From NCBI GenBank assembly GCA_027039625.1, contig JALWDQ010000633.1, forward strand, positions 1-33,851: a stretch of 33,851 nt of DNA. The letters are read 5' to 3'. The DNA comes from Calditrichia bacterium (GTDB lineage Bacteria > Calditrichota > Calditrichia > RBG-13-44-9). Position numbers and translations under genes: made by a program. A model generated the notes under the pieces. It made no database searches, was not told where the DNA came from, and saw nothing but the letters and a program-made list of their open reading frames with translations. Below are positions 1,902-22,328 of this stretch, piece after piece (the first letter of the stretch is position 1; the number at the start of each line of letters is the position of its first letter).

Positions 1902-3323
1902 ATGAAGAACCCATTTCAGGAAATTGATAGAGAAATCCGAGAGGATACCCGTTTTAGCGGGGATGCTTCCCTGCGTCTGGATGTGCTAAATAAGCAACGC
2001 CTGAAAGCCCTGTACCAGGTCGGGCAGAAAATTAACCAGATTATTAATCCCGATTTGTTGTTTGAGGAGATTATTCGCCAGGTACGCGAATTGCTAAAAG
2101 CAGAGCATGTGGTCATCCTGATCCAGGAGAATCAGGAGTTGCGCATCCGCATTGCCCATAACATGGATGAACAATCCCGCCAGAACGCTTTAACTTTTAG
2201 CCGCTCCATTGTGAGCCAGGTGATGCACGGCTTCAAACCCATTTACAGCAAGAATGCCCTGCACGATCCCAATTTCTCCCAGTTGCAAACGGTGCAAAAG
2301 CTGGAGATTTTCTCCTTCATTTGCGTGCCCATTATGGTGGAAGGCAGGGTGATTGGCACCATTTATGTGGATAATCGCAAACTGCCCAATGTGTTCGATA
2401 AATCGGATGTGGATTTTCTGCAGGCATTTGCCAATTTGCTGGGCATTGCCATTCGTAATTCCCTGGCGTACCAGAAATTAGATGAGCTCAATCGTTCGCT
2501 GGAAGAGAAGGTTAAATCCCGCACCGCCCAGTTACAGAAGGCGCTGGAGGAGTTACAGGAGACCCAGGAACGGCTTATTCGCACGGAAAAGATGGCCAGC
2601 CTGGGACGTTTAATTGCCGGTTTTCTGCACGAGTTTAACAATCCCATCAATTTTGTGTACAGCAACCTGCCTCATCTGGAAGAGTACACCCGGATGATGC
2701 TTGCAGCGCTGGAGGATGCCCTCCGCAAATTGCCTCCGGAGGAAAGGCAGGAATTCATCGAAAAATACGATCTGGAATTTTTAAAGGAAGATTTTCAGAA
2801 GCTGCTTTCGGGCATTCGGGAGGGTACCGTGCGCACGCGGGAATTGGTCAACGAGCTGCGCCAGTTTTCCAGCCGCTCGGGGGAAGAGAAAGAGCTCATC
2901 CACTGGCAGGAGAATTTGCAGTTTGTTACCCGCATTTTTCGGGAACGGTTTCATCCCCGGGTGAAGATTGCTATCGAAGGGGGAGAATCGGTATTTGTCC
3001 GGGGTAACCGCAGCGAAATGAATCAGGTAATTTTGAATTTACTGCGCAACGCTGTGGATGCAGGAGCTACCGAGATTACTATCCGCAACGCCGTCCGGCA
3101 GGGGCAGCTTCGGTGCGAAATTCAGGACAATGGCAGCGGAATTGAACCGGAAAACCTCTCCCGCATTTTCGATCCGTTTTTCACCACGAAAGAGGTGGGC
3201 AAAGGGATGGGACTGGGACTGTCGATTGTGTACAACATTATTCAGAATCACCAGGGGAATATCACAGTACACAGCCAACCCGGCCAGGGAACTACATTTG
3301 TTATTACCCTTCCGGTGGAATAA
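1902..3323 (+). CDS. soluble GAF-domain sensor histidine kinase
   Basis: GAF-like N-terminal half, coiled-coil linker, H-box (FLHEFNNPINF), N box (LLRNAVDA), G1 (IQDNGSGI) and G2 (GKGMGLGLS). No transmembrane segment and no adjacent response regulator. Confidence 0.85.
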   Translation: MKNPFQEIDREIREDTRFSGDASLRLDVLNKQRLKALYQVGQKINQIINPDLLFEEIIRQVRELLKAEHVVILIQENQELRIRIAHNMDEQSRQNALTFSRSIVSQVMHGFKPIYSKNALHDPNFSQLQTVQKLEIFSFICVPIMVEGRVIGTIYVDNRKLPNVFDKSDVDFLQAFANLLGIAIRNSLAYQKLDELNRSLEEKVKSRTAQLQKALEELQETQERLIRTEKMASLGRLIAGFLHEFNNPINFVYSNLPHLEEYTRMMLAALEDALRKLPPEERQEFIEKYDLEFLKEDFQKLLSGIREGTVRTRELVNELRQFSSRSGEEKELIHWQENLQFVTRIFRERFHPRVKIAIEGGESVFVRGNRSEMNQVILNLLRNAVDAGATEITIRNAVRQGQLRCEIQDNGSGIEPENLSRIFDPFFTTKEVGKGMGLGLSIVYNIIQNHQGNITVHSQPGQGTTFVITLPVE

Positions 3324-3368: not shown

Positions 3369-4466
3369 GTGAATACGGAAAGGCGACATATTTTTTATGC
3401 CGTGCTGAATATGGGGTTAGGGCACGCCACGCGCAGTTTACCAGTGATTCAGGCGCTGTTGCAGCAAGGCTATCGGGTGACGGTGGGGAGTTCCGGACGG
3501 GCGCTGATATTTTTGCGGCAGGAACTTCCGGAAGCGCATTTTCTGGAGCTTCCGGACTACAATTTGACTTACTCCGAAAAAGGGGTACAACCTGCGGCAC
3601 TGCTGCTGCGGCTTCCCGCTTTGATGAAGAAAATTCGGGAAGAACATCACGTTTTGCAGCAGTACCAGCGTCGGTTTCCTCTACATGGAGTTATTTCGGA
3701 CCATCGCTATGGCTGCTATCTCCCGGGATTACCTTCGTATTTTCTCATTCATCAGTTGCGGTTCATCGCTCCTGCTCCCTTTCGCCGTCTGGAAGGGGTG
3801 GGTGTGACGTTTAACCGCTTTTTTGGGAAGCGCTACGGGGCAGTGCTGGTACCGGACGAACGCAATTCGCCGCAGAGCGGTGGCATCCTGACGGGCAGAC
3901 TAACTCGGGTGAAAAAGAGTATCCCAATTTATTTTACCGGCATTCTCTCCAGTTTACCGGTGGAAACAACCGCAGGAGCACCCATTGATGTGCTTATTTC
4001 CATTTCCGGTCCCGAGCCACAACGCACGATTCTGGAAAAAATTGTGCGGAGGCAGCTTGGGGAGATTCCCGGTCGGAAAGTGGTTTTGCTGGGAAAACCG
4101 GAAGAAACCTCTCCGGAGCATTTACCCGATGGCACGGTGATTTATCCTCACCTCTCCCGTCACCGCATGGGCGAATTGTTCAACCGCAGCCAGCTAATTG
4201 TGAGCCGTTCCGGTTACAGCACGGTGATGGAGCTGGCGGAACTGGGAAAACGCGCTCTGTTTATCCCCACCCCGGGGCAAACGGAGCAGGAGTACCTGGC
4301 CTGGCGCTACCGCAAGCACGGCTGGTTCCATGCTGCCAGTCAGTTTGGATTGAAATTGGGCGAAGAAATTGCCCGGGCAAGGCAGTTTCCGGGCTTCCCC
4401 CGGCGGTTTTCCACCCGGCAGTCTGTTCAGCGAATTCTGTCGCTATTAGAAAAAGAACTTGAATGA
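3369..4466 (+). CDS. GT-B fold glycosyltransferase (GT1/GT28, MurG/MGT-like)
   Basis: GTG start. N-terminal LNMGLGHATRS motif typical of MGT/GT28-like enzymes. C-terminal SRSGYSTVMELAELGKRALFIP nucleotide-sugar binding motif. Confidence 0.7.
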   Translation: MNTERRHIFYAVLNMGLGHATRSLPVIQALLQQGYRVTVGSSGRALIFLRQELPEAHFLELPDYNLTYSEKGVQPAALLLRLPALMKKIREEHHVLQQYQRRFPLHGVISDHRYGCYLPGLPSYFLIHQLRFIAPAPFRRLEGVGVTFNRFFGKRYGAVLVPDERNSPQSGGILTGRLTRVKKSIPIYFTGILSSLPVETTAGAPIDVLISISGPEPQRTILEKIVRRQLGEIPGRKVVLLGKPEETSPEHLPDGTVIYPHLSRHRMGELFNRSQLIVSRSGYSTVMELAELGKRALFIPTPGQTEQEYLAWRYRKHGWFHAASQFGLKLGEEIARARQFPGFPRRFSTRQSVQRILSLLEKELE

Positions 4467-4467
4467 A

Positions 4468-4640
4468 AAATTCCAAATTACAAATCCCAAATAACAAAAG
4501 ACAAATTCCAAAATCCAAATTCCAAATGTCAAAAAAACCGAGGCGATCGCAACGAGCGCAGCGAAAGCTCAAATTCCGGATAACAAATTCCAAATCAAAA
4601 ACAACAAAAAAACGAACTCCACATCACAAATCCTAAATGG
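4468..4640 (+). repeat. degenerate heptanucleotide tandem array 1 (consensus AAATTCC)
   Basis: In-phase heptads aaattcc/aaattac/aaatccc/aaataac/aaaagac/aaattcc/aaaatcc/aaattcc/aaatgtc/aaaaaaa occupy 4468-4537. A 33-nt insert (4538-4570) interrupts the array, which resumes at 4571-4640. Confidence 0.85.
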
Positions 4641-4681
4641 TTTAACATATTCTTTTTTTCCTAATTCAATCATTATTTTCC

Positions 4682-4734
4682 ATTCGTCCTTATTCGTGTT
4701 ATTCGTGGTTAAGTGCTTTTTTGTGTGATTCGTG
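4682..4734 (+). repeat. ATTCGTG heptamer cluster 1 (iteron-like)
   Basis: attcgtc at 4682; attcgtg at 4692, 4701 and 4728. Spacing is 10, 9 and 27 nt. Confidence 0.85.
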
Positions 4735-4802
4735 GTTAATGATTACTGGGAGGCGGAGGAATTGAACAAGCCTTATTGCCTGGCTCTCTTGAGGTGAGCC
4801 AC

Positions 4803-4845
4803 ATTCTGTCATTCTGAGCGGAGCGTTAGCGGAGCGAAGAATCTC
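4803..4845 (+). repeat. short dispersed-repeat-like module (gtcattctgagcggagcg..ggagcgaagaatc)
   Basis: Internal direct repeat agcggagcg x2 (4817-4825 and 4829-4837). It resembles the 'cattctgagcgaagcgaagaatc' type of intergenic repeat that yields junk ORFs (..LRMTE..) in many environmental genomes. Confidence 0.5.
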
Positions 4846-4922
4846 TTCTACATTACATGGAATAATCTTTCTTCGTATCAAAATAATACAGCTTGAGATG
4901 GTACTCTAAAATTATCAATACG

Positions 4923-4978
4923 AAATTCTAAACTACAAATCCCAAATTTCCAATCCCAAACAACAAATTCCAAATTCC
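4923..4978 (+). repeat. degenerate heptanucleotide tandem array 2 (AAATTCC-like)
   Basis: Eight in-phase heptads: aaattct/aaactac/aaatccc/aaatttc/caatccc/aaacaac/aaattcc/aaattcc. Confidence 0.85.
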
Positions 4979-5025
4979 GATAATTTAATAGATTCTTTCC
5001 GAATCTAATATTTTCCTTATTATTA

Positions 5026-5092
5026 ATTCGTGCATATTCGTGTGATTCGTGGTTAATAATTCGTGGGTAAGTTTCCATCCGTACAATTCGTG
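5026..5092 (+). repeat. ATTCGTG heptamer cluster 2 (iteron-like)
   Basis: Exact attcgtg at 5026, 5036, 5045, 5059 and 5086. Spacing is 10, 9, 14 and 27 nt. Confidence 0.85.
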
Positions 5093-5165
5093 GTTTTATT
5101 GATTCCGGCGATCTCGATAATTTTAAAACCCAATTCAAAATTCTTAATTCAAATTTCAAAATTAT

Positions 5166-5248
5166 TTCTGTCGTCCTTACAGGACTTAAAATGATGGGTG
5201 GAATTCACCTTCCCATGGCTGAAGGCCATGGGCTAAATTCTGTCGTCC
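5166..5248 (+). repeat. hairpin-containing repeat module bounded by an 11-nt direct repeat
   Basis: ttctgtcgtcc occurs at 5166-5176 and 5238-5248. An 8-bp hairpin pairs cccatggc (5212-5219) with gccatggg (5225-5232). A small hairpin gtcct/aggac lies at 5173-5185. Confidence 0.6.
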
Positions 5249-5354
5249 ACTCCGTGAACTCATCCCCTGCCAGCCGATAGTTTTTAAATCCTAAGAATCT
5301 ATTCCGACCACCTGGAGTATCCGGTTAAAAAATATCTTTTCTAATTATTGAAAC

Positions 5355-5471
5355 AAATCCCAAACAACAAATCCCAAATCACAAACGAAATTCCAAACCC
5401 CAAATCCCAATTAACAAAAAACAAATTCCAAGTCTCAAATAACAAGCATCAAATTCCAAATTCCAAATGAT
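5355..5471 (+). repeat. degenerate heptanucleotide tandem array 3 (AAATTCC/AAATCCC)
   Basis: About 16 heptads, with one 5-nt irregular unit at 5383-5387. The array ends ...aaattcc/aaattcc/aaatgat. Confidence 0.85.
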
Positions 5472-5511
5472 TAAGAGAATTTTTACACAATCTAATCATT
5501 TCTTTTTTTTC

Positions 5512-5564
5512 ATTCGTGTTTATTCGTGTGATTCGTGGGCAAATATCAATTCTTTTAATTCGTG
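5512..5564 (+). repeat. ATTCGTG heptamer cluster 3 (iteron-like)
   Basis: Exact attcgtg at 5512, 5522, 5531 and 5558. Spacing is 10, 9 and 27 nt, identical to cluster 1. Confidence 0.85.
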
Positions 5565-5692
5565 GTTTGAATTTTTAGAAGCTTTTGTACTCGCAAAATC
5601 AGTAACCCTCCAGCATGGGGTTTCGGGAAGAAAGCACCAAAACCATATTGGTTTTTTTCGTATTGTTTTTAAAGGGTGAATTATTTATTTTT

Positions 5693-5729
5693 GCGTGGCA
5701 TCCGTAAAAGAATGCCGCTTTATTTTTTT
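5693..5729 (+). terminator. terminator-like hairpin plus T-run just upstream of gatC
   Basis: gcgtggcat (5693-5701) pairs with atgccgc (5712-5718) with one bulge, followed by tttattttttt. Confidence 0.4.
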
Positions 5730-5749
5730 CTGAAAAAATACTTAAGATC

Positions 5750-6036
5750 ATGAAAGTATCCTTGCAGGAAGTGGAGCATCTGGCGCACCTAGAGGCGCTG
5801 GAATTTACTCCGGAAGAGAAGCAAAAAATTGCCACTGAACTGGAACGCATTCTGGAATATGTGCGTCAGCTGGAAGAAGTGGATACCACCGGCGTTGAAC
5901 CGCTGGAGCATCCCGGTGGCCCGGTGCAGGCTATGCGCCCGGATGAACCTCAACCTTCTCTTCCAGTAGAAGAGGCATTACGCAATGCTCCCGATCGGCA
6001 AGGAGGTTTCTTTCGGGTTCCCAGGGTGATTCGTAA

Positions 6037-6040
<4 letters not shown>
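5750..6040 (+). CDS. gatC: Asp/Glu-tRNA amidotransferase subunit C
   Basis: 96 aa. Typical GatC sequence (VEHLAHLEALEFTPEEKQKIATELERILEYVRQLEEVDTTGVEP). Confidence 0.85.
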
Positions 6041-18266: not shown

Positions 18267-18773
18267 CGTGTACCTCCTTTCGTTAAAAACTCGCTAAATC
18301 TACCATCATTTCCTGCGAAATTCAAGGTGAAAACGTTTACCGGGTTGGGAAAAAGAGATAAAATAAGAGTGTATGGATATGGAAATGTGTAACTATAATA
18401 GAGAGTCTAAGGCTATCATGTTAGTTTTGTGTGAAATGTAACTTTTAATCCGTAACTTTACATTTCGGTGGTAGTGAATTAACGTTTGGAGGAAGATAAA
18501 AAAATTAAATAATAATTGATTTAGTTTAATATGCAATTATGTAAAATGAATGCACTTGATTTATATTAATTTTAAGATTATTATTTTAGAAAAGGTAACA
18601 AGAATTTATTTTAAATTGAAATTTAAAAAAGGTCTTGAATAATATAAATAAAATTAAAAACACTAAATAATTAACCTTTCCTTTCTAATAAAATATTTGA
18701 TTTGTTAATTTTAGCTTTAAACTTTTAAAAGGCAAATAATGGGAATTATCAAAACAAATAGAGAAAACTGCTC

Positions 18774-19520
18774 ATGAAAGAGAGAAAATATCGTAGACCA
18801 CCTATTGTGGAAGTAGTGTGTGAATTCCGATTTAAACATTCTTCCCCATGGGATGCTACAATTCCTGGACTTATCTATCATGAAGTAAAGAAAAAATTTA
18901 CCAGACGTCGTACTTTACGCAATGTGGGTATGCATGTTCAGGTTGAACATAAAGGTGTATTATTTCAGCCCCGGATGGAAGAAGGGACTCAATTTTTACA
19001 GGATGACGAACGGGCTTTTTTACAGTTACAACCGCGCCGTATTTCTGTTCATCATCTGGCACCCTATCCGCACTGGGAAGGATTTAAACCGTTGATCCAG
19101 TTAGCATATAAAGCATACTTAAAAGTTGTCCCTGATGCCACTATACAGCGGATTGGACTTCGTTATATTAATAAAATTAATTTCGATACACCAGAAGTTG
19201 ATTTATCAGCTTTTTTTAATTTTTATCCCTACGTGGGTAGAAAACTACCACAACGTTATACAGGATTTAATCTTCAATTGTTATTTCCCCATGAAGAAGG
19301 AAGAGACGCTCTTCAGATGCGTTTGAGCAACGCACCCCCAGAAAAAGAAAATGCAGCTTCCATTCTGTTAGACATTGATTATTTTCTAATAGATTCAAAG
19401 AATCTTTCTTCAGAAAGGGGATTGGAATGGGTGGAGAAAGCGCATGAAAACATATTGGCGGCATTCGAAGGGGCTATAACCGATAAATTACGACATCAAT
19501 TTGAGGAGGAGAAAGTATGA
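18774..19520 (+). CDS. TIGR04255-like uncharacterised protein
   Basis: The N-terminal signature YRRPPIVEVVCEFRF and the roughly 250-aa length match my recollection of the sporadically distributed TIGR04255 family. Low G+C. Confidence 0.55.
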   Translation: MKERKYRRPPIVEVVCEFRFKHSSPWDATIPGLIYHEVKKKFTRRRTLRNVGMHVQVEHKGVLFQPRMEEGTQFLQDDERAFLQLQPRRISVHHLAPYPHWEGFKPLIQLAYKAYLKVVPDATIQRIGLRYINKINFDTPEVDLSAFFNFYPYVGRKLPQRYTGFNLQLLFPHEEGRDALQMRLSNAPPEKENAASILLDIDYFLIDSKNLSSERGLEWVEKAHENILAAFEGAITDKLRHQFEEEKV

Positions 19521-19963
19521 CATTTGCCATACCTTCATCATTGGGTATTAAAAATATAGATCTAACATCTGGTTCTGGTAATCCACTCTGGGTTGATGAA
19601 GAAATAAATCAGTGGCAAAATAAAACAACTTCACAATTTGAACGTATTAGCATTTTGCCACAATTTTACAAAATTAATCAGCCAGGGGAAGTCTTTAGAT
19701 TTCTATATGACCATCCTGGTTTAATTGAAGTTGTGTTGGAAGCAGTGGAGATTTTACGAAATGTATTCGGACCGGATGCATCTCTGGAACTGGAATTGGT
19801 AACGGATCCAGAAGCGGATGAATCCGAGTTATTTGCCCTGGTAGAAGTCGATATGACTCCTGAAGTAGCCTTGCAAAAACTGGAGGAATTCGATCAAAAT
19901 TGGCTTCTGGATCGAGAAGAAATTACTAAGGGACTTTTTAATGTAGATGTGACGTTTCGATGA
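19517..19963 (+). CDS. hypothetical small protein with acidic C-terminal half (possible antitoxin or adaptor)
   Basis: ATGA overlap with the upstream stop codon. The acidic C-terminal half (LELELVTDPEADESELFALVEVDMTPEVALQKLEEFDQNW) looks like a small antitoxin-like protein. Confidence 0.5.
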   Translation: MTFAIPSSLGIKNIDLTSGSGNPLWVDEEINQWQNKTTSQFERISILPQFYKINQPGEVFRFLYDHPGLIEVVLEAVEILRNVFGPDASLELELVTDPEADESELFALVEVDMTPEVALQKLEEFDQNWLLDREEITKGLFNVDVTFR

Positions 19964-20334
19964 GATTTCAATGGGAAACATTCATTAATCTTGCTGAAAG
20001 GCTACATCAGGAAAGTGAATCCTTTGTGGAAACAGAAGCCTATCAGCGCTCGGCAATTAGCAGAGCCTATTACGGTGCATTTGGATTGGCACGCGAAATT
20101 GCAGTACGTGAAGGTCTTTCTTTAACTTTTACGGGGGAAGACCATAAAAATGTGGAACAGCATTTCCGGGGAAATTCACAAAAATTTCGTAAACAGATAG
20201 GAATAGAGCTGAATCGTTTAAGACGACTTCGGAATAAAGCAGATTCTGCGGAATCAATCTCGGGTTTGCCGAAGGAAACGCGAAAGGCTTTGGTGCAAGC
20301 ACGAAATATTGAATCTAATTTAAAAAAGTTGTAA
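19960..20334 (+). CDS. HEPN-like four-helix protein
   Basis: ATGA overlap with the upstream stop codon. RSAISRAYYGAFGLAREIA resembles classical HEPN helix 1. LRRLRNKADS resembles the HEPN R-x(4-6)-H region, but the His is missing. Confidence 0.5.
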   Translation: MRFQWETFINLAERLHQESESFVETEAYQRSAISRAYYGAFGLAREIAVREGLSLTFTGEDHKNVEQHFRGNSQKFRKQIGIELNRLRRLRNKADSAESISGLPKETRKALVQARNIESNLKKL

Positions 20335-20415
20335 ACAAAATTATTAGGAATGAATATATTTAGCACTGTGAGGTATTAAAATTTTAATTTTTTTAGAAAA
20401 TAGACAGGTAACGTA

Positions 20416-21543
20416 ATGCCAGAATATTTTATGTTAGAGCGGATTTTACTGCAAGGGTATAAATCAATTCATGAAGCAGATATTGAGCTTCGCCCTATTA
20501 ATGTGCTGATTGGAGCAAATGGTTCTGGCAAATCCAATTTTATTAGTTTATTTAAGTTTATGAACCGTTTAGTCAATCAGGATTTGCAGAAATATGTATT
20601 ACAATCGGGTGGAGCTGACCAGTTCCTTCACTATGGACGAAAGAAAACTGAGCGACTTCATATTGAACTCTGGTTTAGTAAAAATAATAAATTGGCAAAT
20701 GGTTATGAATGTTCATTAATACCTACGTCAAAAGATTTATTAGCATTCGAAAAGGAAGTAATTTATATTCACAACCGTGAAAAATATAAAAAACCTTACA
20801 TTATTGAAAAAACATTTCGTGTTCATGAAGAAACAATTATACCTAAATGGAAACAAAAACGTGTCCGTGTGTCGAAATATATCATGAAGGCTCTTCAATC
20901 GTGTAAATTGTATCATTTCCACGATACCAGTGATTCAGCCAGAGTTAAACAAACAGGCGATATTCACGACAATCTTTTCCTAAGACCAGATGCCTCGAAT
21001 CTTGCCGCATATTTATTTCTGCTTAAAAAAACGAAACCAGACTATTATCACAATATTGTAGAAACCATTCGTCTGGCTGCACCTTTCTTTGGGGATTTTA
21101 TTCTTCGTCCCTCACCTTTTAATCCTGATAAAATACGTCTGGAATGGAAAGAGAAAGGTTCAGATGTTCTTTTTGGCCCCAATTCACTTTCGGATGGAAC
21201 GCTTCGTTTTATCTGCCTCACCACTCTTTTTATGCAACCACCCGAAAAGTTGCCATCAACTATTGTACTGGATGAGCCTGAACTTGGGTTACATCCCTAT
21301 GCCATAGCTCTTCTGGCAGATATGGTTCGGAGTGTTGCCAAACATACGCAGGTTATCCTGGCAACCCAGTCGGTAACTCTTGTAAATCAATTCCTCCCGG
21401 AAGACATTCTGGTTGTTGACCGAATTGAGGGGAAAACCATCTTCCGACGTTTAACAGAAAAAGAGATGGCTTCCTGGCTTGAAGACTATGGTCTGGGAGA
21501 TTTATGGGAGAAAAATTTGCTGGGGGGACGTCCTGCGTTATGA
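20416..21543 (+). CDS. ABC/SMC-type ATPase (AAA_21/AAA_15-like, OLD/AbiL/PARIS-type ATPase)
   Basis: Walker A GANGSGKSN, ABC signature LSDGTLRF, Walker B IVLDEPELGLHP, switch region ILATQS. An alternative ATG lies at 20431. Confidence 0.85.
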   Translation: MPEYFMLERILLQGYKSIHEADIELRPINVLIGANGSGKSNFISLFKFMNRLVNQDLQKYVLQSGGADQFLHYGRKKTERLHIELWFSKNNKLANGYECSLIPTSKDLLAFEKEVIYIHNREKYKKPYIIEKTFRVHEETIIPKWKQKRVRVSKYIMKALQSCKLYHFHDTSDSARVKQTGDIHDNLFLRPDASNLAAYLFLLKKTKPDYYHNIVETIRLAAPFFGDFILRPSPFNPDKIRLEWKEKGSDVLFGPNSLSDGTLRFICLTTLFMQPPEKLPSTIVLDEPELGLHPYAIALLADMVRSVAKHTQVILATQSVTLVNQFLPEDILVVDRIEGKTIFRRLTEKEMASWLEDYGLGDLWEKNLLGGRPAL

Positions 21544-22208
21544 CAAAAGTGCTTATTTATGTAGAGGGACAAACGGAAGAAACTTTTGTTCGTGATTTAT
21601 TAGCGCCGTATTTCAAACAAAAATGCAGTATTTATTTAATCCCTTCGTTAGCAAGAACAAAACGAACCAGAGCCGGACGAGCGTTTAAAGGTGGGATTGT
21701 TTCATACGGTAAAGTTAAAAAAGATATTTTGAAGTTATTGGGTGACAGGAGTGCTGCATTAGTTACCACTATGTTAGATTTTTATGGTCTCCCCAATGAT
21801 TTCCCTGGAAAGAAATCCCTCTCCTCAGGTTCCCCAACTGATCGTGTTCAACATTTAGAAAAGGCATTTGGGGAGGACATAGCCAGTACTCGTTTTCTCC
21901 CTTTCCTTGTTTTGCATGAATTTGAAACATTTATCTTTGTGCAGCCTGAAAAACTCGCCGAAGCATTGCCCGGATATCTGACGGAAGTTCAAAATTTAAT
22001 TAAAAATGTTGGTCACTTAACTCCTGAAGAAATCAATGAAGGCAGGGACACCCATCCATCAGCACGAATTCTGAAACTATTTCCTACTTATCAAAAAAGA
22101 TTGCACGGACCGCTTATTATCAAAAAAATTGGTCTGAATTTGGTCAGGAGCAAATGCCCTCATTTTAATAACTGGTTCTCTAATTTAGAAAAATTATGCC
22201 CTGGTTAA
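21541..22208 (+). CDS. DUF4276 family protein (TOPRIM-like)
   Basis: The ATG at 21541 overlaps the ATPase stop codon (ATGA). N-terminal IYVEGQTEETF, central LHEFETFIF and C-terminal HPSARIL...CPHFNNW match my recollection of DUF4276. Confidence 0.65.
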
Positions 22209-22221
22209 TACGGAATGATTT

Positions 22222-22251
22222 CTTGAACCGTTCTTTCTTCAAGTGTTTTTT
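22222..22251 (+). terminator. weak terminator-like hairpin after the DUF4276 gene
   Basis: cttgaa (22222-22227) pairs with ttcaag (22238-22243), followed by tgtttttta. Confidence 0.3.
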
Positions 22252-22328
22252 ATTCAAAATAATTTTTGCGAGGCTTGTATGCTGTTTTTTCGCACATTAC
22301 CTTCCGGAAGGGAATAATGTTCCACCCA

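Follow-up and report, generated by a model that had tools for sequence, protein, structure and literature searches.

The closest working model for the repeats described here is the REPIN-RAYT system, in which inverted repeats border one enzyme gene and intergenic DNA is populated by doublets and singlets (PMC3116915, PMC3337134). A second described class, long simple-sequence repeats with a 7-nucleotide (nt) unit, has been attributed to polymerase slippage; these arrays cluster in mosaic spacers and break assemblies (PMC4679880). We analyzed a 33,851-nt stretch of contig JALWDQ010000633.1 (assembly GCA_027039625.1) from a Calditrichia bacterium, hereafter the window, in which a spacer of 1,283 nt (4467 to 5749) lies between a glycosyltransferase open reading frame (ORF) upstream and gatC downstream and carries three copies of a composite noncoding unit. 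In our judgment, the spacer is rather probably a mosaic of short interspersed noncoding repeats, and its three modules are orphan arms of the type that elsewhere brackets genes for GxxExxY proteins, persisting as nonautonomous leftovers.

The first-pass annotation of the window had described three same-strand copies with the order heptamer array, T-rich linker, and ATTCGTG cluster, and this order was recovered by Tandem Repeats Finder (TRF), motif counts, and alignment. Each unit comprises a heptamer array, a linker of ∼45 nt that ends T-rich, an arm of the form ATTCGTG n3 ATTCGTG n2 ATTCGTGG, and a degenerate second block, which lies ∼10 to 20 nt after the arm and ends in ATTCGTGGTT in the unit alignment. 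Homology among the three units starts inside the heptamer array and stops sharply after ATTCGTGGTT. The 27-nt arms are identical at 24 of 27 positions in all three pairs, whereas the linkers are only 43 to 53% identical. The window contains 14 copies of ATTCGTG (100 shuffles averaged 4.8 and never exceeded 10), in agreement with the earlier view that the spacer is modular and nonrandom. Twelve of these copies lie in the spacer, all on the + strand (4692 to 4734, 5026 to 5092, and 5512 to 5564). G+C content is ∼35% in the spacer versus ∼50% in its surroundings, and the GC skew is strongly negative (−0.17 to −0.27 over 4501 to 5500). The ORFs predicted across the spacer are low-complexity translations of the repeats, as had been noted.

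Two other assemblies provided contigs that match the window at 100% identity over 4300 to 5193, over 4300 to 4730, from 5416 onward, and from 5536 onward, a cover that excludes 5194 to 5415. The organism is present in the samples underlying ERZ23491132 and SRR14326976. Over the portions with independent contigs, the triplicated feature is no assembly artifact, a concern that had been raised at the outset. The four independent contigs of the locus (L392, L393, L121, and L122) all terminate within the repeat region, at window positions 4730, 5193, 5416, and 5536. Two of these four ends fall exactly within ATTCGTG clusters, which hints that such short sequences are repeated in the sampled community.

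The module formed by the T-run and the ATTCGTG cluster is the arm of a dispersed, multicopy repeat family found in many phyla. A family arm consists of three tandem 9- to 10-nt units (ATTCGTG plus 2 to 3 nt) with GG at the end and a T-rich inner flank. Its 17-mer ATTCGTGTGATTCGTGG has at least 120 matching stretches in a species-representative genome collection, against a chance expectation of ∼70, and the carriers are nearly all Planctomycetota, Verrucomicrobiota, Bacteroidota, Calditrichota, Acidobacteriota, Chloroflexota, Desulfobacterota, and Hydrogenedentota. We built an arm profile from 137 instances aligned on this 17-mer, all from other genomes. The profile has traits that the search did not force, namely, a third ATTCGTG upstream (58 to 89% per position), no fourth, a T-rich 5′ flank, and TT after the GG. 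When run against the window with nhmmer, this foreign profile matched 5022 to 5058 (E value of 8e-8), 5509 to 5545 (1e-7), and 4677 to 4713 (2e-3). All matches were on the + strand and significant only at the three clusters, with the second blocks scoring more weakly. The window arms at 4682 to 4708, 5026 to 5052, and 5512 to 5538 each have three units of 9 to 10 nt with a WTYYGYG core. They end in GTGGTT, GTGGTT, and GTGGGC, following the family rule (GG, mostly then TT or GC), and T-runs stand at 4650 to 4659 and 5503 to 5510.

Arms of this family are linked to the GxxExxY gene, in a set of hosts that includes at least 10 bacterial phyla. Among 13 wider-spaced arm pairs (roughly 420 to 620 nt), 5 enclose an ORF of ∼126 amino acids (aa), and all 5 ORFs are assigned to PF13366 PDDEXK_3 / TIGR04256 "GxxExxY protein" with E values of 1e-32 to 1e-41; their sources include at least two Planctomycetota and two Bacteroidota. 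Within the motif-selected loci, arms bracket 14 of 16 GxxExxY ORFs. We also performed the reciprocal test on 80 loci fetched by protein similarity without the motif, which yielded 80 GxxExxY genes with complete flanks. With an inverted-repeat score of ≥16 between flanks as the threshold, and flanks paired from different loci as the control, inverted-repeat flanks were present at 63 of the 80 genes versus 10 of 80 mismatched pairs. The arms in this set again have three 9- to 10-nt units and mostly lie 0 to 40 nt away from the start or stop codon. Unit types vary among cassettes (TTTCGTG, TTCCGTG, ATTCGCG, TTTAGCG, and TTCTGTG), yet within a cassette the two arms agree, including their spacers. 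Among GxxExxY proteins from different host phyla, those in one cluster tend to have arms of the same type. Immediately ahead of the start codon, the innermost left unit often continues into an AGGA/GGAG tract; judged by sequence, the T-rich inner flank of the right arm appears to be the complement of that tract.

Some GxxExxY genes have a complete doublet on each side (L339, L350, L361, and L325), and two GxxExxY ORFs occur in a single locus in L116 and L387. Some cassettes are embedded in operons: a Chthoniobacterales metagenome-assembled genome (MAG) has one between nuoK and nuoL (L328, 2139 to 4752), and an Opitutia MAG has one directly behind an ABC-transporter ATPase gene (L321, 1603 to 3940). 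Judged from their flanking sequences, other Opitutia and Chthoniobacterales loci have cassettes at the same positions. RefSeq-annotated cassettes repeat the pattern, as on a Bacteroides finegoldii plasmid with arms CCACAGAGGACGCAGAGGACACGGAG / CTCTGTGACCTCTGTGTCCTCTGTGG; the units of this cassette's arms (L391, 1420 to 1445 and 1853 to 1880) are of the CACAGAGGA/CTCTGTG type.

GxxExxY (PF13366 / TIGR04256) is a large family, with 6,248 sequence clusters in one search. The protein retains E...D...ExK residues, and its fold was predicted with a predicted local distance difference test (pLDDT) score of 94; the best structural match in the PDB was Cas4 SSO0001, followed by lambda exonuclease and RecE. 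No solved structure was matched by a PDB sequence search with the protein. GxxExxY is predicted, from the model, to be a small (∼125-aa) nuclease of the PD-(D/E)XK class with a Cas4/RecB-like fold.

Many arms occur as inverted pairs. An inverted partner was present within 700 nt on the 5′ side of 63 of 105 arms (60%) and on the 3′ side of 3 of 105. Neighboring arms on opposite strands had the order (−,+) in 16 cases and (+,−) in 4, and the usual layout of a pair is CCACGAAT x3 ... ATTCGTG x3 GG. Short pairs with a loop of 30 to 150 nt are gene-less hairpin doublets, and Gemmataceae doublets often have as their loop a G+C-rich hairpin, with an A-run on one side and a T-run on the other. A Calditrichota MAG, JAADJD01, contains at least 8 copies of an element of ∼190 to 215 nt on 4 contigs, 75 to 88% identical to each other and with ATTCGTG arms; their inverted repeat reaches ∼20 nt past the arms. 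The window units are 65 to 78% identical to these copies over 55 to 110 nt but lack inverted repeats. The three window arms are orphans, among the ∼40% of arms that are solo. Stem mismatches were of the G·U type in 97 cases versus 74 of the A·C type, as a comparison of RNA-level with DNA-level stems (P = 0.09). A tRNA T-arm look-alike at the junction GGTTCAAATCC in a Desulfobacterota MAG, with only two possible base pairs, was dropped.

The triple motif was further present in 80 viral-contig stretches, where chance would give ∼0.03 (the collection size being roughly estimated). No GxxExxY gene was found in the viral-contig stretches fetched. Viral contigs (L236, L288/L277, L290, and L260/L298/L308) carry 3 to 5 arms each, on one strand per contig, with 20 adjacent pairs on the same strand and 7 on opposite strands; they differ in the orientation of the arms relative to genes. 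A strand polarity like that of Chi or of FtsK-orienting polar sequences (KOPS) was rejected, given 6 same-strand versus 13 opposite-strand pairs of adjacent solo arms in genome loci and co-orientation in viral contigs only. Solo arms also showed no orientation bias relative to gene starts (60 starts downstream on the same strand versus 49 upstream on the opposite strand) or gene ends (59 ends upstream on the same strand versus 66 downstream on the opposite strand).

The heptamer arrays do not belong to the arm family as a general component. TRF called arrays of period 7/14/21 at 4468 to 4536, 4923 to 4978, and 5351 to 5468, with the consensus AAATTCC / CAAATCC, 63 to 77% matches, and a period-7 copy number of 8.0 to 8.6 in all three. 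Being tandem and intergenic, they share the defining properties of long simple-sequence repeats and fit this known, microsatellite-like class of 7-nt repeats. Cyanobacterial short tandemly repeated repetitive (STRR) heptamers and TAACTGA repeats (PMC4679880, summarizing Mrazek et al. 2007) are likewise tandem, degenerate 7-nt arrays that are intergenic and break assemblies, and, as in the window, they are mixed with other heptamers. Unlike those, the window arrays have the unit CAAATYC, a Calditrichota-like host, and a fixed position 5′ of an arm. Array 1 is broken at 4537 to 4566 by unrelated sequence containing GCGATCGC. At 4543 to 4550, GCGATCGC is the sequence of the cyanobacterial highly iterated palindrome 1 (HIP1); it occurs once and may be there by chance.

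Elsewhere, 6.2% of arms have a heptamer array within 200 nt, versus 3.3% of random positions, an unconvincing difference on which we rejected the array as a regular partner of the arm. The idea that the arrays are decayed left arms was also set aside and remains a guess, since their minus strand has no profile match and complementarity is absent. CAAATYC repeats adjoin arms at a few Verrucomicrobiota and Bacteroidota loci. A composite comparable to that of the window was found in a single MAG, CSMAG_2661 (Deltaproteobacteria, Desulfobacterota), which has (CAAATCC)n, AAAAGGGAA, a T-run, TTCGTG x3, and GGTT at several loci. In this MAG (L202, reverse-complement coordinates 3036 to 3260; also L133, L145, L188, and L194), 71-nt copies of (CAAATCC)n-AAAAGGGAA-T-run-TTCGTGTAATTCGTGAAATTCGTGGTT are arranged head to tail. 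Its spacers are also rich in other heptamers (AATCTAC and TTTGCAA) and G+C-rich hairpins. A stringent metagenome scan for the full composite of heptamers, T-run, and ATTCGTG gave no further copy; its three matches were all ordinary doublets of other organisms. The positions of all parts of the window units are collected in Table 1.

Table 1. Parts of the three repeat units, intervening modules, and flanking genes in the window
Feature	Position	Strand	Basis and remarks
Glycosyltransferase ORF	3369-4466	+	Glyco_trans_1_3 / Glyco_tran_28_C
Heptamer array 1, CAAATYC-type, degenerate	4468-4640	+	TRF period 7/21 at 4468-4536; repeat families D1-D3
Linker 1, T-run ttcttttttt at 4650-4659	4641-4681	+	Sequence; T-rich inner flank is a family trait
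Arm 1: ATTCGTC ctt ATTCGTG tt ATTCGTGG TT	4682-4710	+	Three units; nhmmer E 2e-3; no inverted partner
Second block of unit 1, two-unit, degenerate: TTTTGTG tg ATTCGTGG TT	4719-4737	+	Repeat family D5; nhmmer E 5e-3
Separate repeat module ATTCTGTCATTCTGAGCGGAGCG..GCGAAGAATCTC	4803-4845	+	Repeat families D6, D10; sequence
Heptamer array 2	4923-4978	+	TRF period 7/14
Linker 2: small hairpin AGATTC-tttcc-GAATCT, then T-rich stretch	4979-5025	+	Sequence; centroid fold
Arm 2: ATTCGTG cat ATTCGTG tg ATTCGTGG; extra unit ATTCGTGG at 5059-5066	5026-5066	+	nhmmer E 8e-8; no partner
Second block of unit 2, degenerate: ATCCGTA ca ATTCGTGG TT	5077-5095	+	Repeat family D5; nhmmer E 0.08
Acido-Lenti-1-like module: full copy 5212-5260, half copy 5162-5185	5162-5260	+	cmscan RF01687
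Heptamer array 3	5351-5468	+	TRF periods 7/14/21/28/33
Linker 3	5465-5511	+	9-bp A/T stem AAATGATTA 5465-5473 / TAATCATTT 5493-5501, then T8 5503-5510; first four bases shared with end of array 3; stem seen in minus-strand fold
Arm 3: ATTCGTG ttt ATTCGTG tg ATTCGTGG	5512-5538	+	nhmmer E 1.3e-7; no partner; 100% identical in contig L121
Second block of unit 3, degenerate: ATTCTTT ta ATTCGTGG TT	5549-5567	+	Repeat family D5; nhmmer E 0.5
gatC	5750-6040	+	Followed by kdsB, pyrG

The stretches between the units hold further repeats. The module at 4803 to 4845 has the sequence ATTCTGTCATTCTGAGCGGAGCGTTAGCGGAGCGAAGAATCTC, and its ends (ATTCTGTC ... AAGAATCT) resemble a module at 5229 to 5304, around the Acido-Lenti-1-like module; by sequence, a further repeat type may be present in variant form in both inter-unit stretches. 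The full Acido-Lenti-1 copy matches the complete 46-nt model of RF01687, both hairpins included, but its cmscan score of 31.7 bits (E value of 3e-5) is below the gathering threshold of 37. The half copy scores 17.3 bits, and both copies begin with TTCTGTCGTCC.

We consider the orphan-arm reading of the spacer the best account of these data. On this reading, arms would be sites for copying of the cassette and its gene-less derivatives, whether by nuclease-dependent homing or transposition or by arm-to-arm recombination. The three window units would be nonautonomous leftovers that were duplicated locally; their arms may have been kept alike by recognition in trans or by gene conversion while the linkers drifted. 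The heptamer arrays would be slippage-prone, microsatellite-type arrays that, in this lineage, joined the arm on its inner side. Where they now lie, the units probably serve no function dedicated to gatC, and arms or cassettes may have moved. The first-pass annotation had proposed a propagating nonautonomous element, and this survives in part: the arm module belongs to a dispersed, nuclease-linked family with at least 8 copies in a Calditrichota MAG, whereas spread of the whole composite as one element is not supported by the metagenome scan or by the near-background frequency of arrays beside arms. The alternative it had offered, a structured regulatory region or RNA, found no support in folding or Rfam searches (see below).

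A stronger version of this reading is possible, although we hold it only tentatively and think it somewhat improbable as a whole. It states that GxxExxY with two triple-unit arms forms an undescribed class of selfish cassettes of ∼470 bp, with REPIN-like gene-less derivatives, spread over at least 10 phyla of bacteria and their viruses; that the nuclease recognizes or cuts the arms and so drives their copying; and that the window units are nonautonomous derivatives, with the arrays as scars. The nuclease would then act on the arms, perhaps once they form a long stem by extrusion or transcription, and the arrays would be scars left by repeated breakage and slippage along the arm's inner edge.

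Several observations weigh against the orphan-arm reading. No consistent or clear target-site duplication or insertion boundary was found in the doublets, including the JAADJD01 copies. The window arms have no inverted partner, with best reverse-complement scores of 6 to 7, compared with ≥14 for 63 of 105 arms elsewhere. Neither a GxxExxY gene nor a remnant of one was found in the window by hmmsearch of all ORFs, by tblastn, or in a six-frame translation of 4400 to 5800. Because the window contains no partner arm and no GxxExxY gene, its link to the nuclease is through family membership alone. The family leaves the heptamer arrays unexplained. In the only relative found, which is the nearest one sharing this glycosyltransferase, the spacer is an ordinary one of 290 nt and the neighboring genes differ. 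Finally, the absence of an orientation bias relative to genes is compatible with selfish DNA but proves nothing.

Other explanations were weighed against that of orphan arms. It is unlikely, in our view, that the ATTCGTG units are binding sites of a host DNA- or RNA-binding protein and that GxxExxY genes merely insert into or beside them. The three units with a 9- to 10-nt period, about one helical turn, are indeed reminiscent of MraZ or response-regulator boxes, sequence conservation is far higher in the arms than around them, and the large solo fraction would suit such sites. However, the unit differs among cassettes while both arms of one cassette match, which indicates element-specific arms rather than a single conserved host factor, and arms occur in every intergenic context, also on viral contigs. 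To our knowledge, the DnaA box, the extracytoplasmic function (ECF) promoter, and the MraZ box have sequences unlike the arms, which are also far too numerous to form one regulon. Equally, we regard as quite unlikely that the spacer insulates gatC-kdsB-pyrG from transcriptional read-through, with the arrays loading Rho and a hairpin plus T-run pausing or stopping RNA polymerase. The arrays are C-rich and G-poor on the + strand, and the GC skew reported above fits the composition of a Rho utilization (rut) site, an unstructured stretch of RNA of about 80 nt. Folding of the three units on both strands gave z scores of −0.15 to +1.05, no better than shuffles, so their RNA would be unstructured, as Rho loading would favor; in unit 3, T8 comes after a 9-bp stem, and the arms of Gemmataceae doublets enclose a GC-rich hairpin that, with its A- and T-runs, resembles a two-way terminator. 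Against this, a terminator scan gave zero matches in 4467 to 5749, with terminator- and promoter-like matches overall at chance level, and an intrinsic terminator would combine a G+C-rich stem with a T-run, whereas the stems before the T-runs here are weak and A/T-rich. Insulation also sits poorly with family arms that have no preferred orientation to gene starts or ends, and it leaves the bracketing of nuclease genes by arms unexplained.

The long spacer upstream of an operon and the subthreshold Acido-Lenti-1 match could suggest small RNA genes or a structured gatC leader, a reading to which we assign very little probability. In searches of the window and 14 doublet loci with gathering and E-value thresholds, no Rfam family reached threshold; the folds were no more stable than shuffles, promoter-like matches were at chance, and the Acido-Lenti-1-like piece falls outside the units, in the stretch separating units 2 and 3. 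Least credible of all, and close to negligible, is plain low-complexity slippage DNA without any family relationship, or an assembly artifact. The degeneracy of the arrays (63 to 77% matches) and the breaking of other-assembly contigs inside the region are what such an origin would produce, but a profile made from other genomes only finds the three clusters with E values down to 8e-8, and independent contigs reproduce most of the region at 100% identity.

The GxxExxY system is not a member of the REPIN-RAYT class, despite the likeness. Repetitive extragenic palindromic (REP) sequences and REPIN-RAYT, bacterial interspersed mosaic elements (BIMEs) of Proteobacteria, and the arm family all combine intergenic singlets with inverted hairpin doublets and an enzyme gene flanked by inverted repeats, and both REPIN-RAYT and the arm family place several repeat types together in mosaic spacers. 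The combination of doublets, singlets, and flanked enzyme gene is present at the level of the arm family, whereas the window holds singlets only. The RAYT protein is a Y1 (IS200/IS605-like) transposase, whereas the arm-bracketed genes encode a PDDEXK_3 / TIGR04256 nuclease; a REP sequence is a palindrome headed by GTAG, whereas a GxxExxY arm consists of three tandem 9- to 10-nt units. In further contrast to REPIN-RAYT, the GxxExxY gene can be multicopy (as in the two loci with two ORFs), and the family occurs in many phyla with signs of transfer between them.

Doublets also resemble miniature inverted-repeat transposable elements (MITEs) in being gene-less, ∼100 to 215 nt long, bounded by terminal inverted repeats, and present in several diverged copies per genome, as in the Calditrichota MAG. 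Unlike MITEs, they show no target-site duplication that we could find, and the window copies are one-armed. We know of no DDE transposase partner for the doublets. Like 23S rRNA intervening sequences with an ORF, cassettes have a small ORF in the loop of a long stem of flanking inverted repeats within a host transcription unit; they differ in sitting between protein genes, such as nuoK and nuoL. By analogy, cassettes might be processed by RNase III, which is a guess.

Elsewhere in the window, a low-GC island (18300 to 22300, 27 to 40% G+C) lies behind an A/T-rich divergent spacer. It contains a candidate defense pair, HEC-01A at 20416 to 21543 (AAA_21/AAA_15 ATPase, E value of 2e-149) and HEC-01B at 21504 to 22208 (DUF4276, E value of 5e-77), as well as a weak HEPN-like ORF at 19960 to 20334 and two ORFs without a family.

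One survey lists the function of GxxExxY as "Unknown" and notes multiple transfers between divisions (PMC3424549). In the accessible parts of the literature on GxxExxY / PF13366, we found no mention of flanking repeats, and no paper containing the arm 16-mers was found. We found no published description of a link between flanking arms and GxxExxY in a search without most subscription journals, and an earlier one is possible.

For the annotation of the window, the 1.28-kb gap is to be read as repeat DNA, neither genes nor regulatory RNA. Repeats of the B. finegoldii arm type are often miscalled as tiny low-complexity ORFs in many genomes, and arms of the family may be one source of such calls. 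The arm family would also explain short, assembly-breaking intergenic sequences in Planctomycetota, Verrucomicrobiota, Bacteroidota, Acidobacteriota, Calditrichota, and other phyla. Matched arms, gene-less doublets, and orphans together point to a role for GxxExxY that can be tested, as the enzyme serving a system of repeats.

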